Positions 350 to 63,321 of a stretch of DNA of 64,000 nt are shown here, piece after piece. The stretch is from positions 12,462,001-12,526,000 of the forward strand of contig CM022676.1 in the NCBI GenBank assembly GCA_012295275.1, written 5' to 3'. The translations under genes were made by a program, and so were the position numbers. The stretch's first letter is position 1. Each line of letters begins with the position of its first letter. The notes under the pieces were generated by a model. It was given only the letters and a program-made list of their open reading frames with translations. It was not told the origin of the DNA and ran no database searches. Source of the stretch: Chrysomallon squamiferum (Eukaryota > Animalia > Mollusca).

Positions 350-634
350 ATCCACCATCAGTCCCAAGTTTAACTGCAAGTTCAAATTTTCCCTGGTTAG
401 AAAGAGAAAACAGAAATTTGACGTGCTCTGTGAGAGAGAGAGGAAATCCTCCAGCTGACTTTGTCTGGTATAAAAATGGAGTCAAACAGCCTGGACAAAG
501 AAAATCTATCTGGTTGTTCAGAAACCTGACTTACAAAGATAACAAACTAACATTCAGATGTGAGGCTCAAAATATTTTTACACTACACAAAAATGAAGTG
601 AAATCTTCACCTGATACAGCACTCAATGTTTTCT
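350..634 (+). CDS. Gene A Ig-domain exon (Ig6 equivalent)
   Basis: PPSVPSL..LTCSV..GNPPADFVWYK..LTFRCEAQN; tag/gtgagt boundaries; phase 1. Confidence 0.9.
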
Positions 635-3600
635 GTGAGTATTAAACATGATGCTTTGTTATTTTTATACTGTTTTATGATTTATTGAACTTTAATTTGA
701 AACCGACTAGTGTTTATTGCCATGAAAAGTCCAATAATCATAAACTGTTTAATTATTATTAAGAATTATTCTTTGTTTGCTAAAAATAATTTATAGTGTA
801 CGAGAAATCAAACTTAAAAACAAGTAAATAATGATTTAATTTACTACAGACAGTCCACGAGTAACTGTTGATACATCTGGACCAATCACAAAGCGAGAAG
901 GACAGGAGTTGGAGAAGATAGACTGTACTGCAGACAGCAATCCTCCAAACCCTACAATTACTTGGACATCAGATTCAAATAAACCATGGAAGGGTGGTCT
1001 CCCTTTAGAGATAGCAGTACTTGACAGAGGGCAGCACGGGACATATACGTGTAAAGCGACAGTCACTTCATCACTGGGAACACTGACAGGAACTTCACAA
1101 ATTGAAATTATAGTAAACTGTAAGTTTTTAAAACTCTTTTTAAATTATATTATTTTATTATTTTTTTTATAATACATTATTGCACATTAAATTTAAATTA
1201 GATCCACAAATCACAAATTGAAATTATAATAAAGCGTAATTTAAAAAAATAAAAATAAATTAATATTAAATTTATTTGTTGATTAGTTATCTCCCTGATT
1301 AGTTAGTGTCATTTTACATTTTTTTAAATATATTAATATTTTTTTTTTTTCTAAACTGGTGGATTATTGTATATTCAATTAGATTCATCAATTACAAACT
1401 GCAATTGTAGTAAAATATAAGAGGAATATTTCTTGTTCTCAATACAAATAATAATAATAATAATAATAATAATAATAATAATATAATAATAATAATAACA
1501 GTGTTCGTTCTGATTTCTCTAAGATGACTTTTTTAATGTTTTGTAATGTTAAACAGATGCTCCTGATGTTGAAGTGACAAGTCAGACAACAAGTGAAGGA
1601 CACAAACTGATTGTCACATGTGAGGCTTTTGGTCGACCAGACTCTTACACATTTCACGGTTTTCAACAGAGCTGGAGAGATCAGTTTGTGAGAAAGGTGG
1701 AAGGTACTAAAGAAGAAAGAAACAAATATGTGTGGACAGTGCAGTCTGCTAGTTACAAAGATTCTGGTACATATCAGTGTCTGGTAGACAATACAATCAC
1801 AGACACAAACAACACGTTGATTCAAAGCAACACAACTTTAGTACTTGTCAGTGGTGAGTTATTTTATTGTATATTTTGTAAATTATGTTAAGAGTTAAAA
1901 TAGTATTCAAATCAGTGTATCACTTTATTTCTAAACATATATTTTGTATATACGACAAAAATAACATCACTAAGAATCATTTTCTTTCATTGTAAGCTTT
2001 AACATTCTTGATTAGTTTTTTGATAATCAATTACATTTGTGACATAGAGAAAAAGTGAGCCAGTTGATTTATTTAGGTACAATCCATTTAAATATATGTG
2101 GATCCTGTGTGGATTTGTCTTGATAGTGAGCCATGTTTGGTAATAGAAATAATGCAAAGTATTGTCTAAATCAGGGGTGGCAATTGTTTTTTCCGTGGGA
2201 CCACATGAGAAACAGAGAATATTGTGGAGGGCCGGGCCAAAAGGCTTAACTCAGTTCTGCATAATATTAATTGTATTTCTTTATAAACCCAGTAAATAGC
2301 ATTGTTTTGACAAGCTGGTAAGACTGGTAAGAGTATATGTTATGATTAAACAACAAAAAAAGTGAGGTTGCCTTAGAAAAAAATGTCATTTATTCAATTA
2401 TATTTCTCAAAACAATGGTCCCAAAAATTTGAACATTTTTAACATTTGTGACTCATTATATTTCACCTCATAATGCCAACTCAAACTGTAATCCTTAAAG
2501 ACAGCGATCTGCTCTCTGCAAACTAAACTCATGGCTTTACCTCCGACTTCAGTAAATAGATACTTTTTAATTGTAAACCCTGCATTCAGCATCTACCTTT
2601 CTCTTTTTTAGCATGAGTGGACATTTTGAGGGCTAAAGTCGTATTGGGACTTGCTTGTGAAAACGATTCAGTCACATGCACGTCTTGATTTACATATTGT
2701 GTCATTTTGTACATGAATAAAAATCCACCTTCAAAATAAAAGTAATGCTGCTTTAGTCCATGCATGAGGTGAAATTAGAAAATATGTTTATTTTATAATT
2801 CCCAATTAACTTTACATGGGCACATCAGTCAAAATGCCCAGGTCTGGTCTAAATGTTAATCAAGACTGGTTACTTTGATTTCAGATTATTCTTTACATAT
2901 ATTAGAAATAACAAGTTAAAAGCAGAAAAAGGTTTTATTTACATCACTTATAAAAAATGCGAGCTAGCTGATTTAGTTAGCTTCAAACCATTTTAATATA
3001 CACAGATCCACATAGGAAAACAAATTCCATTGTCTTGATAGCCAGCTATGTTTGGAAATAGAAATAACACAAAGTAGTGTCTAAATGTTAACCATGACTG
3101 GTTACTATGACTAAATATCCTTCTTTACATACATTAGAAATAACAAATCAAAAATAGAAAAAAGTTTCATTGAAATTACACACAAATATTGTTGGAATTA
3201 TGAGGTTGATGATGATGATGATGTTTGCAGGAAAACCAGTGATCACACTGGAGAGCAAGAGAGATGAAACAATTGGAGAAGAAACAAGCACACAAGTCAC
3301 GTTGTACAAAACAGTGTTTTCTCAAAGTGTAATTACGTCACACAAGTGGATGAAGAACAGTGACGTCATTAATGACACCAGAATAAAAACTGAAATGACT
3401 AAAACACAAATAACTCTGAGTTTGTTTGAAAATGTTGTTGTTCATGATGACGGCTACAACTTTACACTGGACATCAACATGTTTGAAGAGTCAGACACTG
3501 GACAGTACACACTTGAAGTGTGTAATAATTTCACTTGTGACATTTTCTCAACTCATCTGACAGCAGCAGGTTTGTACTGTTTTTATTTCTGATGATTTTG

Positions 3601-62000: not shown

Positions 62001-63321
62001 TGAAATAATTAATTACCTTTAGTCTCTATGGTTACTTCAGATGTAAATGGACTGCGGTTTCTGTGCAATTTCTTGAATTCTCAGCTAAAACTCTGAACAC
62101 ATATGTGTGTCCTGAGTTTAATCCTGTGATGTTCATAAAAACAACTTCATCTCTTTCAGCATGATCATTGTACCACTGTTGTATCCAGTCAGACTTTGTA
62201 TCTGTGTCTCTGTATTCGACTAAAAATCTCTGAGTGTATGGACCTCCAGCAAAATCTGCTGTCCACTTTAGAAATACAGTGTCAGTTGTAGAACCAAATG
62301 CTGAGAATGACCTTGGCACGTAAGGAGGTCCTAAGTTAAAAAAAAATATAATAAAAAAAAAATTATAAATAGATTTTTAACTTTTTTTCTTATTATTATA
62401 TGTAGGACATTATAAAATTGAAAATTTGGTATCATTTTCATTATGTTTACAGATTTTCCATCAAAAAGATTACAGATTATACTTTAATCCATAATAAAGA
62501 TTTACTGTTTGTCAGTTTTTACATTCTTCTATTACAACTATTTTAGCATTACGTATTAAATAATAATTCATGTCATTGTTGCATTTGATCCTAACACTTT
62601 TTTCCTAAACAAAGATAAATATTTTTCACTGGTTTTAATAAATGTTTCATCATGTTAATATGAAGTACGTCATCAACTTTATTTTTACTGATGTGTTTAC
62701 TGTAAGGACATCTGTCCATGGACAGTGATGAGTATGTTTAACACATTTGGTGGCTGGTAATACTGTCACTCATCTGACACAAACAGCACATAACACACTG
62801 CATGCTTTCTTTTCTGGGATAAAGTGATTTAAATGTTGCCATGAAGTCTGTCGCCCAAATACCCACAGCTTTAAGTATCTGACATTAGTTTTGATCATTT
62901 CCAGAATAAAAATATGTGATCTAATTAGAGTCATAATGAAATATACTTGAATAAAACCATCAGAAATAAAAACAGTACAAACCTGCTGATGTCAGATTAG
63001 TTGAGAAAATGTCACAAGTGAAATTATTACACACTTCAAGTGTGTACTGTCCAGTGTCTGACTCTTCAAACATGTTGATGTCCAGTGTAAAGTTGAAGCC
63101 GTCATCATGAACAACAACATTTTCAAACAAACTCAGAGTTATTCTTGTTTTAGTCATTTCAGATTTTATTCTGGTGTCATTAATGACGTCACTGTTCTTC
63201 GTCCACTTGTGTGACGTAATTTCACTTTGAGAAAACACGGTTTTGTACAACGTGACTTGTGTGCTTGTTTCTTCTCCAATTGTTTCATCTCTCTTGCTCT
63301 CCAGTGTGATCACTGGTTTTC
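58963..63321 (-). CDS. Gene C: 3' part of third paralogue with two ITAM exons; FN3 exon frameshifted as assembled (pseudogene, secreted form or consensus error)
   Basis: Minus-strand exons 63321-62983 (Ig9), 62330-62017 (FN3, 314 nt), 61115-60984 (TM), 60573-60552, 60276-60230, 60071-59958, 59389-59279, 59000-58963 (stop TGA); all GT-AG; phases compatible apart from the 2-nt insertion. Confidence 0.82.
59279..59389 (-). CDS. Gene C second ITAM exon
   Basis: DKEHGSGKPDGIYEGLQERQDSSQYQTLQLYENLNRT; YxxL-x8-YxxL. Confidence 0.87.
59958..60071 (-). CDS. Gene C first ITAM exon
   Basis: DRESEATAPDSNTYEKLKERRDSQQYSTLQLYENIRKT; YxxL-x8-YxxL. Confidence 0.85.
60230..60573 (-). CDS. Gene C juxtamembrane exons (60573-60552; 60276-60230)
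   Basis: ESNSGNGQ|QVNRDVTNLSAQPVI; both have gtaagt donors; phases 1 to 2 to 1. Confidence 0.75.
60984..61115 (-). CDS. Gene C transmembrane exon
   Basis: VKMSSSANTGVVIGGVAGSVVALIVIAVTVTVLVTHRRKQHKKH; close paralogue of 38206-38337. Confidence 0.88.
61581..61745. repeat. (GT)n-rich microsatellite
   Basis: Direct inspection. Confidence 0.9.
62017..62330 (-). CDS. Gene C FN3 exon with 2-nt insertion
   Basis: 314 nt vs 312 in A and B; frame shifts after AENSR and stops at 62032-62034. Confidence 0.8.
62983..63321 (-). CDS. Gene C Ig9 exon
   Basis: Paralogous to 3231-3569; 339 nt. Confidence 0.9.

Follow-up and report, generated by a model that had tools for sequence, protein, structure and literature searches.

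A 64,000-nucleotide stretch of the Chrysomallon squamiferum genome (assembly GCA_012295275.1, contig CM022676.1, positions 12,462,001 to 12,526,000 of the forward strand), here called the window, holds a gastropod gene cluster in which two large immunoglobulin (Ig)-type receptor genes, A and B, have a near-identical outer part over four domains and different inner tails. The tail of gene A carries a motif of the ITAM (immunoreceptor tyrosine-based activation motif) class, and that of gene B an ITIM (immunoreceptor tyrosine-based inhibitory motif) followed by an ITSM (immunoreceptor tyrosine-based switch motif). They are treated here as a predicted pair of activating and inhibitory receptors. 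A third copy, gene C, lies on the opposite strand. The window is AT-rich (GC 23-42% in 2-kb windows), and the exons are short and of phase 1. Two proteins of Gigantopelta aegis serve as references throughout. P0001, annotated 'contactin-2-like', is the nearest protein in the public collection (64% over the fibronectin type III (FN3) exon). It has 548 amino acids in the layout Ig1-Ig8-Ig9-FN3-transmembrane (TM) segment, with a tail ending NTYEGLGPREATPYAELEIHEHFKN. P0169 (XP_041372798.1, 755 amino acids) has an ITIM-type tail and was found via the cluster of the best near-length match.

The window begins within gene A. Its predicted exons, and a fragment 1.3 kb past its stop codon, are as follows.

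350..634, + strand: exon Ig6, phase 1-1 (open reading frame (ORF) and splice sites; translation the same as that of gene B Ig6)
850..1119, + strand: exon Ig7 (ORF and splice sites; translation the same as that of gene B Ig7)
1557..1853, + strand: exon Ig8 (tblastn with P0001, 67%; donor read from the sequence by homology)
3231..3569, + strand: exon Ig9 (tblastn with P0001, 52%; splice sites)
4082..4393, + strand: exon FN3 (tblastn with P0001, 61%; donor CTAAAG/gtaac; the gene B counterpart matches Pfam fn3, E 3.8e-9)
5740..5886, + strand: TM exon, ITAM-type TM containing LLRHGYLSLSS (hydropathy 2.81; phase-1 splice sites)
7094..7200, + strand: terminal exon, YEGL-x7-YSKL, then LYEN, then stop (motif; acceptor ttgcag/AA in phase with the TM donor; tblastn with the P0001 C-terminus, E 3e-6)
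8523..8663, + strand: Ig8-like pseudo-exon fragment (tblastn with P0001 residues 181-227, 49%, E 8e-8; ORF)

The gene A model is predicted to form one open frame of 585 amino acids inside the window without an internal stop, and all its ectodomain exons are of phase 1-1. The TM exon scores 78-83 against G. aegis ITAM-type TMs and 32-39 against ITIM-type TMs, and its hydrophobic core has no visible charged residue. The tail comprises 46 residues and ends YEGL-x7-YSKL-x-LYEN, with the motif YEGLGSPESAPYSKL (YEGL-x7-YSKL) at 7129-7173 (+). The canonical ITAM consensus is YxxL/I-x6-8-YxxL/I, and the two YxxL halves in gene A, spaced by 7, conform to it. P0001 aligns in order to the Ig8, Ig9, FN3 and tail exons of gene A (tblastn). 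Seven G. aegis proteins, P0001 and six paralogues, were compared; six of the seven end NTYEG[LF]G-x5-PY..[LMT]E[LI], and P0008 stops shortly after the TM. Five of the six further paralogues end DQTNTYEG[LF]G-x5-PYAK[MT]ELYENL[KN]T. Given this collinearity and the tails of the paralogues, the gene A tail appears to be a conserved family feature and the gene model sound. The fragment at 8523-8663 is read as a relic of another duplication.

Gene B follows on the same strand, and its ectodomain and TM exons are predicted as follows.

26173..26502, + strand: exon Ig1 (tblastn with P0001 residues 17-122, 38%, E 1e-16; no Pfam match; splice sites)
27687..28037, + strand: exon Ig2 (Pfam Ig_3, E 4e-5; splice sites)
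28377..28640, + strand: exon Ig3 (Pfam Ig_2/ig, E 2.5e-5; splice sites)
29106..29423, + strand: exon Ig4 (Pfam C2-set_2, E 2.9e-7; splice sites)
29968..30264, + strand: exon Ig5 (Pfam Ig_3, E 4.8e-4; splice sites)
33930..34214, + strand: exon Ig6 (Pfam Ig_2, E 3.8e-8; splice sites)
34430..34699, + strand: exon Ig7 (Pfam Ig_3, E 9.2e-9; tblastn with P0169, 36%)
35135..35431, + strand: exon Ig8 (Pfam Ig_3, E 1.3e-8; P0001 68%; P0169 35%)
36808..37146, + strand: exon Ig9 (Pfam Ig_3, E 8.4e-5; P0001 50%; P0169 41%)
37251..37562, + strand: exon FN3 (Pfam fn3, E 3.8e-9; P0001 64%; P0169 39%)
38206..38337, + strand: TM exon, ITIM-type TM containing GGVAGSVVALIVIAV, phase-1 donor CATG/gtgatt (hydropathy 3.1; splice sites)

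In eight of the nine Ig-like exons (2 to 9) Pfam detects a domain of Ig type with E below 0.001, and in the tenth exon fn3, each time a generic Ig or fn3 family. For the signal-peptide exon there are ambiguous candidates only, one of them at 22623-22683. The TM exon scores 53-76 against ITIM-type TMs and 42-46 against ITAM-type TMs. As in gene A, the ectodomain and TM exons of genes B and C are of phase 1-1. The first-pass annotation, made from the sequence alone, had proposed a scaffold of nine Ig domains and an FN3 domain for the system. This scaffold is present in gene B, the only gene in which all nine Ig exons are visible; Ig1-5 of gene A and Ig1-8 of gene C fall outside the window, so that these two genes are seen in part.

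The similarity of genes A and B extends over a segmental duplication bordered by a satellite.

1..3651, + strand: gene A copy of the duplication, exons Ig6-Ig9 with introns (blastn against the gene B copy, 33581-37228)
30250..33880, no strand: 34-bp tandem satellite of about 3.6 kb that fills the Ig5-Ig6 intron of gene B (repeat finding at 34-nt spacing; self-blastn)

By self-blastn the two copies are 99.04% identical over 3,651 nt, introns included. A separate FN3 block (A 4061-4440, B 37229-37604) is 93.5% identical, and similarity ends at A 4440 and B 37604, about 45 bp past the FN3 donor. The 35 differing columns of the duplication include 22 in 2,478 intron nt, a divergence of 0.9%, none in Ig6 and Ig7, two in Ig8 and 11 in Ig9. 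The Ig9 differences are clustered in the first 136 bases of the exon (3250-3385 against 36827-36962) and alter about seven residues. At most of these sites gene C sides with gene A. The cluster may be a conversion patch or a result of diversifying selection. ORFs and self-blastn bear out the first-pass claims that the three paralogues have Ig/FN3 exons in common and that genes A and B translate identically for Ig6 (ORFs 337-645 and 33917-34225) and Ig7 (ORFs 840-1172 and 34420-34752). Over Ig9 and FN3 the two proteins are 95% identical. Genes A and B are linked paralogues with highly similar ectodomains, as established for Ig6 to FN3 only, and 19 kb of unique sequence together with Ig1-5 of gene B lie between the two copies. 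The satellite is also found at 1-300, ahead of the gene A Ig6 exon, where it is 100% identical over 300 nt to that in the gene B intron. It borders the 99% duplication and is a possible site of recombination or misjoin; a single N at 32347 lies inside it. Between Ig9 and FN3 gene A has 409 extra bases (3652-4060), and in gene B the homology blocks abut at 37228/37229.

The tail motif of gene B, LIYVDL-x18-TEYASI, is at 50478-50567 (+), in an exon 12 kb downstream of the TM exon. The strong acceptor of this terminal exon (ctttgttag/GC) is in frame in phase 0 only, and the TM donor is of phase 1. Direct splicing from the TM exon was rejected: the strong acceptor at 50463 used in phase 1 reads G-S-C-stop, and the phase-compatible acceptor at 50476 is weak. 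As direct splicing is out of frame, additional tail exons are needed. A hidden Markov model (HMM) was built from ten ITIM-type mollusc tails and used to search every ORF segment, 3,493 in all, from the six reading frames of the window. Its three best segments were +50463-50615 (E 6.8e-11), +44796-44981 (E 0.087) and +49724-49846 (E 0.52), all on the + strand, downstream of the gene B TM exon and in profile order. A rough estimate, as opposed to a computed test, puts the chance of ranks 2 and 3 falling in those places and in that order at well below 1%. The predicted tail exons are as follows.

44845..44928, + strand: cytoplasmic exon e1 (probable), containing NLYSKVKKSN, phase 1-1, tttttcag/AT and AAAAG/gtcagt (HMM rank 2, E 0.087; module alignment)
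49743..49840, + strand: cytoplasmic exon e2, GDVYENVEL followed by NVYQND, phase 1 in and 0 out, cttttag/GT and ACAATT/gtgagt (blastp with P0036 and P0110 tails; HMM rank 3; tblastn with P0169, 57% over 30 amino acids)
50463..50618, + strand: terminal exon e3, LIYVDL (ITIM)-x18-TEYASI (ITSM), then PLPDNE and stop (motif; HMM rank 1; P0169 45%)

Exon e3 is matched by all ten ITIM-type tails in blastp (best E 3.7e-5), and e1 probably belongs to the tail as well. The phase-0 end of e2 fits the strong phase-0 acceptor at 50463, and the TM donor, e1, e2 and e3 make one in-frame chain. The predicted 14-exon model encodes 1,177 amino acids, has no internal stop, closes on a stop codon and is in frame with or without e1. 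The tail of 121 residues is spread over three exons. Its ORF has a codon usage score of 0.314 per codon, within the range of known exons (0.21-0.37), and nine of 463 null ORFs score as high. P0169 is collinear with gene B over Ig7, Ig8, Ig9, FN3, e2 (57%) and e3 (45%) by tblastn. Profile, splice phases and P0169 agree on at least three exons where a single-exon tail had been supposed. Several other searches on this region were negative: a scan for intermediate exons with a pyrimidine-tract cut-off of 0.65 did not recover e2; a motif scan with a GC filter gave a sole match, within a repeat; (E/D)N-x-LY modules like those of P0169, sought at 38.4-44.8 kb, gave none that was convincing; and Pfam had no match for the tail exons. 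No ITAM-exon remnants were found downstream of gene B, and no ITIM-like exons near genes A or C.

Gene C enters the window from its far end, with its earlier exons past the window end.

62983..63321, - strand: exon Ig9 (ORF; 90-92% DNA identity to A and B; tblastn with P0001, 48%; splice sites)
62017..62330, - strand: exon FN3 with two extra bases near the 3' end (three-way DNA alignment)
60984..61115, - strand: TM exon, B-type (84% amino acid identity to the gene B TM)
59958..60071, - strand: ITAM exon 1, YEKL-x8-YSTL then LYEN, phase 1-1 (motif 60033-59986; splice sites ccacag/AC and ACAG/gtttat)
59279..59389, - strand: ITAM exon 2, YEGL-x8-YQTL then LYEN (motif 59354-59307; donor ACTG/gtaaaa)

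Self-blastn finds the minus-strand copies of Ig9, FN3 and their flanks at 61828-63988 (90-97%), and the TM regions of B and C (38121-38357 and 61200-60963) are 87.5% identical in DNA. Taken together, the TM exons of genes B and C score 52-76 against ITIM-type and 42-49 against ITAM-type TMs. The two ITAM exons are 56% identical to each other, and both motifs, with a spacing of 8, have the canonical form. The donor of ITAM exon 2 suggests a further exon, and none was found beyond it. By its exons gene C is thus read as a third, mosaic copy that combines a B-type TM with two ITAM exons. The tail motifs named for the three genes in the first-pass annotation are all where it had placed them.

As assembled, gene C is probably a pseudogene. 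The two extra bases in FN3 relative to A and B shift the frame to NSRNCTETAVHLHLK, with a stop at 62034-62032 (residue 212 of the partial model). No other donor in phase was found that would rescue the frame. At the frameshift site (62040-62080, - strand) genes A and B differ by two compensating 2-base indels, and gene C is B-like on the 5' side (AGAAAT) and A-like on the 3' side (TGCACAG). Because it reads B-like on one side and A-like on the other, gene C looks like a recombinant that kept only one of the two compensating indels, and not like the product of a random error in sequencing. An assembly error is a possible cause of the frameshift. The pseudogene would be recent, since the tail ORFs are still intact.

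The distribution of the two tail types was followed by a profile search of 1.84 billion representatives, which gave 777 matches. The best 150 of these 777 were used, and 53 of the 150 have a TM near the C-terminus. Among the 53, ten carry the ITIM/ITSM module, 14 carry YxxL-x6-9-YxxL/M and none carries both. The ITIM/ITSM module has the form GL-x-Y-x-x-[LVI], about 20 residues, T-x-Y-x-x-I-D and PLPD-x-DE; named carriers are Mya, Argopecten, Sinanodonta, Mytilus and Haliotis. In an alignment of gastropod and bivalve modules both tyrosines and the L at -2 are invariant (12/12), and 10/12 have a T at -2 in the second motif. P0169 has the B-type TM and the three tail modules of gene B (LYxxVxK, GDVYENVEL and GL.Y...EY.SID...PLPD), with a GDVYENVEL stretch identical to that of e2. 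On these comparisons both tail modules are old, widespread and common to bivalves and gastropods; the earlier description of the tails as unrelated does not hold, and their sequences are not novel. The automatic names of the relatives are contactin-, nephrin-, hemicentin-, syg-2-, DSCAM-, NCAM- or turtle-like, much as had been foreseen in naming nephrin/hemicentin-like labels as the probable outcome of automated annotation. A check for kinship with nephrin, made by Pfam, tail motif and source organism, found generic Ig/fn3 Pfam families only and tails without YDxV, and those that are named among the 20 representatives looked up are molluscs.

Two relatives bear on how such genes are arranged. 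In Sinanodonta woodiana an ITIM-type protein (P0070) and an ITAM-type protein (P0038) are encoded on one contig under locus tags ACJMK2_027470 and ACJMK2_027485, 15 apart. These neighbours hint at mixed clusters in bivalves too. The G. aegis protein P0158, annotated 'kin of IRRE-like protein 1', has a tail with four tandem 38-residue units, SNY.SLE...DDLEVYEN. In length and pattern these match the two ITAM exons of gene C, which suggests that units of the ITAM kind are multiplied in the form of phase-1 cassette exons.

The ectodomain and the tail of gene B have different nearest relatives. Its ectodomain is nearer to the ITAM-type P0001 (Ig8 68%, Ig9 50%, FN3 64%) than to the ITIM-type P0169 (35%, 41% and 39%), and its tail exons match P0169 at 57% and 45%. 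A quick maximum likelihood tree of Ig9 and FN3 (39 rows), with the Shimodaira-Hasegawa-like approximate likelihood ratio test (SH-aLRT) as sole support measure, places A, B and C in a clade with P0001 (SH-aLRT 99) and P0169 in another clade (99). On this tree tail class requires at least eight changes among the 29 labelled rows (11 ITIM, 18 ITAM). Support for the deep branches is weak and a number of the rows are long, so that only the local cases of switching carry weight, namely those of this window (SH-aLRT 99), of Sinanodonta (P0038/P0039 with P0067, 97) and of Mya (P0090 with P0127, 91). The changes of tail class suggest that pairing is recurrent and not a one-off event. The simplest reading is that recombination or gene conversion in the cluster placed an A-like ectodomain before an ITIM-type TM and tail, or the converse. 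Gene B, or its ectodomain, would have arisen by that exchange, with a breakpoint some 45 bp beyond the FN3 exon.

Genes A and B are considered, with somewhat more confidence than doubt, to be linked paralogues of a mollusc-wide Ig/FN3 receptor family that have a membrane-proximal ectodomain in common and opposite tails, and that are predicted to act as an activating/inhibitory pair. Gene B carries an ITIM and an ITSM in its own predicted tail, their tyrosines 24 residues apart, and its partner A an ITAM in a phase-compatible terminal exon. The two motifs of gene B fit the ITIM consensus S/I/V/L-x-Y-x-x-I/V/L and the ITSM consensus T-x-Y-x-x-V/I, and the interval between their tyrosines would suit tandem SH2 domains. 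As the tail motifs are of opposite classes, the two receptors would likely send opposite signals. Phosphorylated ITAMs, that is paired YxxL motifs, bind the tandem SH2 domains of Syk-family kinases, and pYxN binds Grb2-type SH2 domains. Following ligand binding and phosphorylation by a Src-type kinase, the paired tyrosines of A would recruit a tandem-SH2 kinase of the Syk/Shark type, and its YEN motif a Grb2-type adaptor. The ITIM and ITSM of B would bring in either tandem-SH2 phosphatases of the SHP type or SHIP, and would damp the response of the same cell. In PD-1, an ITIM (Y223) and an ITSM (Y248) are described as binding the two SH2 domains of SHP2 (PMC7078208, PMC6994217). Of the earlier proposal of a paired system, the linkage of A and B with opposite motif classes stands, each model being matched by a collinear G. 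aegis protein (P0001 and P0169 respectively). Gene C as a working second activating gene does not stand, as it is frameshifted.

Several observations weigh against a paired function. The canonical ITAM is found in only one of the six G. aegis ITAM-type tails (P0001, YAEL); the second half is YAKM in four of the six, and one of the six has YEGF/YAKT. Both ITAM tyrosines are present in all six. The sequences of A and C fit the ITAM class; in the relatives the canonical form is not strictly kept. YxxM and YEN are the p85 and Grb2 SH2 motif classes. What the relatives conserve may therefore be a function in sorting or in PI3K/Grb2-type signalling, and not the recruitment of Syk. The relatives carry the names of adhesion molecules. 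Sharing is seen for the membrane-proximal domains only, with Ig1-5 of gene A, the likely ligand-binding end, beyond the window, and the 11 clustered Ig9 substitutions set B apart from A. The splice junctions of both models are predicted ones, the profile match to e1 is weak (E 0.087), and gene B has a tail intron of 6.5 kb or 11.4 kb, a long one for this locus. For the gene B tail, a protein word-index search gave no match, a metagenome scan gave 588 pattern matches of which none was confirmed, and the best hit in a protein atlas (score 0.88) was a mollusc hypothetical cluster, a lead only.

The strongest competing explanation is that A and B are adhesion or morphogenesis receptors of the nephrin/Kirre/NCAM/DSCAM kind, in which the motifs are docking sites for adaptors (Nck, Grb2, PI3K) or YxxPhi signals for endocytic sorting, and the tails are tissue or trafficking variants. 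It agrees with the annotation of every named relative as contactin-, nephrin-, hemicentin-, syg-2-, DSCAM-, NCAM- or turtle-like, with the purely generic Ig and fn3 matches in Pfam, and with a second ITAM half in G. aegis that is mostly YxxM and followed by YEN. Those names are automatic, however, and the invariance of the tyrosines of ITIM-x24-ITSM (12/12 across bivalves and gastropods) is the pattern of tandem-SH2 phosphatase binding. The family turns over its paralogues fast, has undergone recent gene conversion and repeated switching of tails, and includes a pseudogene. Such traits typify clusters of immune receptors, not conserved adhesion molecules. In oysters, an Ig/FN3 receptor bearing two ITIMs is, moreover, reported to be haemocyte-expressed and inhibitory via SHIP2 (PMC11841013). 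The adhesion explanation is considered unlikely, but it is given more credence than the two that follow.

It is improbable that the ITIM/ITSM exons belong not to gene B but to the remains of another, decayed gene, or to a gene with missed 5' exons, with gene B ending soon after the TM. The tail exons do lie 6.5-12 kb past the TM exon, read-through of the TM donor gives a short tail ending in a stop, and the cluster has relics (the Ig8 fragment at 8523-8663 and the frameshifted gene C). Yet no other Ig-like or FN3-like exon is found at 38.4-50.4 kb on the + strand, the splice sites of the TM donor, e1, e2 and e3 form one in-frame chain, the tail ORFs are unbroken and exon-like in codon usage, and the TM exon of gene B is itself ITIM-type. 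P0169, a single protein, has the ectodomain family, the TM type and the tail in the same order. Even less credible is an assembly artefact, by which for instance two haplotypes or a collapsed repeat were joined in tandem across the 34-bp satellite, so that one chromosome would not carry two separate genes. The 99% identity extends into introns, the same long satellite lies upstream of both copies, a classic place for a misjoin, and the N at 32347 is within it. Against this stand the 35 differing columns with their non-random cluster in Ig9, the 409 extra bases of A between Ig9 and FN3, an FN3 block only 93.5% identical, unrelated TM and tail exons downstream, and the 19 kb of unique sequence plus Ig1-5 of gene B between the copies. 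Even as alleles, the locus would hold alternative ITAM and ITIM forms.

Beyond the predicted pairing of A and B, a broader hypothesis is entertained tentatively, and with more doubt than confidence: throughout this mollusc-wide family, two ancient tail cassettes would have been swapped repeatedly onto near-identical ectodomains by recombination within clusters, an independent invention of the paired-receptor principle. The cassettes would be the ITAM-like YxxL-x7/8-YxxL-x-LYEN and the ITIM/ITSM GL-x-Y...T-x-Y-x-x-ID...PLPD. The window would then catch a swap recent enough to have left introns 99% identical, together with a failed mosaic copy, gene C.

Other features of the window lie apart from the three genes or within their introns. 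A dispersed repeat of about 345 bp forms an inverted pair (15548-15892 and 48470-48813, 84% identity); one copy is within the long tail intron of gene B, and its ORFs have no Pfam match. At 17700-21100 there is a GC-richer block (42% at 18-20 kb, about 30% elsewhere); several ORFs of 70-105 residues, on both strands, have exon-like codon scores there and match nothing in Pfam. The block may be a decayed mobile element. Two ORFs that overlap on opposite strands at 14350-14489 have high codon-usage scores (0.52 and 0.56 per codon) and no Pfam match. A Pfam search of 15 other ORFs of the window found no family. Four RNA runs from a single study contain 10-24% of the words sampled from 33900-38400; no conclusion here is based on these shares.

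Receptors paired as activating and inhibitory forms are a hallmark of innate immunity in vertebrates, and comparative immunology has yet to settle whether a like principle evolved elsewhere. The locus offers a concrete, testable invertebrate case, in which A and B could be cloned as natural 'tail-swap' chimeras of one ectodomain. Should the broader hypothesis above hold, pairs of this kind could, in a vent-snail lineage that bears symbionts, determine at what point bacteria are attacked and no longer tolerated. Bivalves and gastropods alike conserve both cassettes, so that results would also apply to the economically important oysters and mussels. The automatic contactin-, nephrin- and hemicentin-like names hide the signalling tails. 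Should the function be adhesion and not immunity, the locus would still show cleanly how gene conversion shuffles exon cassettes.

Hydractinia Alr and the Botryllus allorecognition loci are clusters of polymorphic immunoglobulin superfamily (IgSF) membrane proteins with ITAM-like or ITIM-like tails. Compared by description only, they are like this locus in being clusters of ITAM/ITIM-tailed IgSF proteins, and their ectodomain architectures are unrelated to those found here. Among molluscs, single ITAM- or ITIM-bearing IgSF receptors are already known. The oyster protein CgNCAM1 (XP_034303240.1) is described as having three Ig domains, FN3, a TM and two ITIMs; it binds SHIP2 and is expressed by haemocytes, in which it lowers the expression of IL-17 and TNF (PMC11841013). 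By description, CgNCAM1 and gene B are both mollusc Ig/FN3 single-pass receptors with two tyrosine inhibitory motifs, CgNCAM1 having fewer Ig domains, and the portion of the report drawn on here describes no activating twin (PMC11841013). An Argopecten relative of the gene B tail module, P0110, is annotated 'neural cell adhesion molecule 1-like'. Another oyster receptor, CgIgIT2, is termed ITAM-bearing in a review (PMC11999971) and an inhibitory receptor in the title of a reference cited by PMC11841013. In the first-pass annotation such a system was not known to have been described for this architecture. Single oyster receptors bearing ITIMs or ITAMs are in print, and a literature search, with subscription journals and supplements outside its scope, found no mollusc linked pair with near-identical ectodomains, nor these two cassettes as a family-wide alternation.

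The closest comparison is with G. aegis, in which P0169 has the tail modules and TM type of gene B, and P0001 the TM type and tail of gene A. The G. aegis models are shorter, with three to four Ig domains, and the ectodomains of the ITAM and ITIM types are 40.6% identical over Ig9 and FN3, in contrast to 95% protein identity in this window. A further comparison is with vertebrate CEACAM1/CEACAM3 and Fc-gamma-RIIB/RIIA and, more loosely, KIR, LILR, SIRP and Siglec-5/14. The snail locus differs from these in belonging to another phylum without orthology, in its larger ectodomain (nine Ig domains and FN3), in the lack of a charged TM residue or adaptor use, and in the conserved YEN after the ITAM-like unit. 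The part seen to be shared is moreover the membrane-proximal Ig6-FN3 and not the distal ligand-binding end, and function here is predicted from sequence. The likeness lies in linked paralogues of which one carries an activating motif in its own tail, in homogenised ectodomain exons (99% here, introns included), in the opposition of ITIM+ITSM and YxxL-x7-YxxL tails and in the presence of a pseudogene in the cluster.

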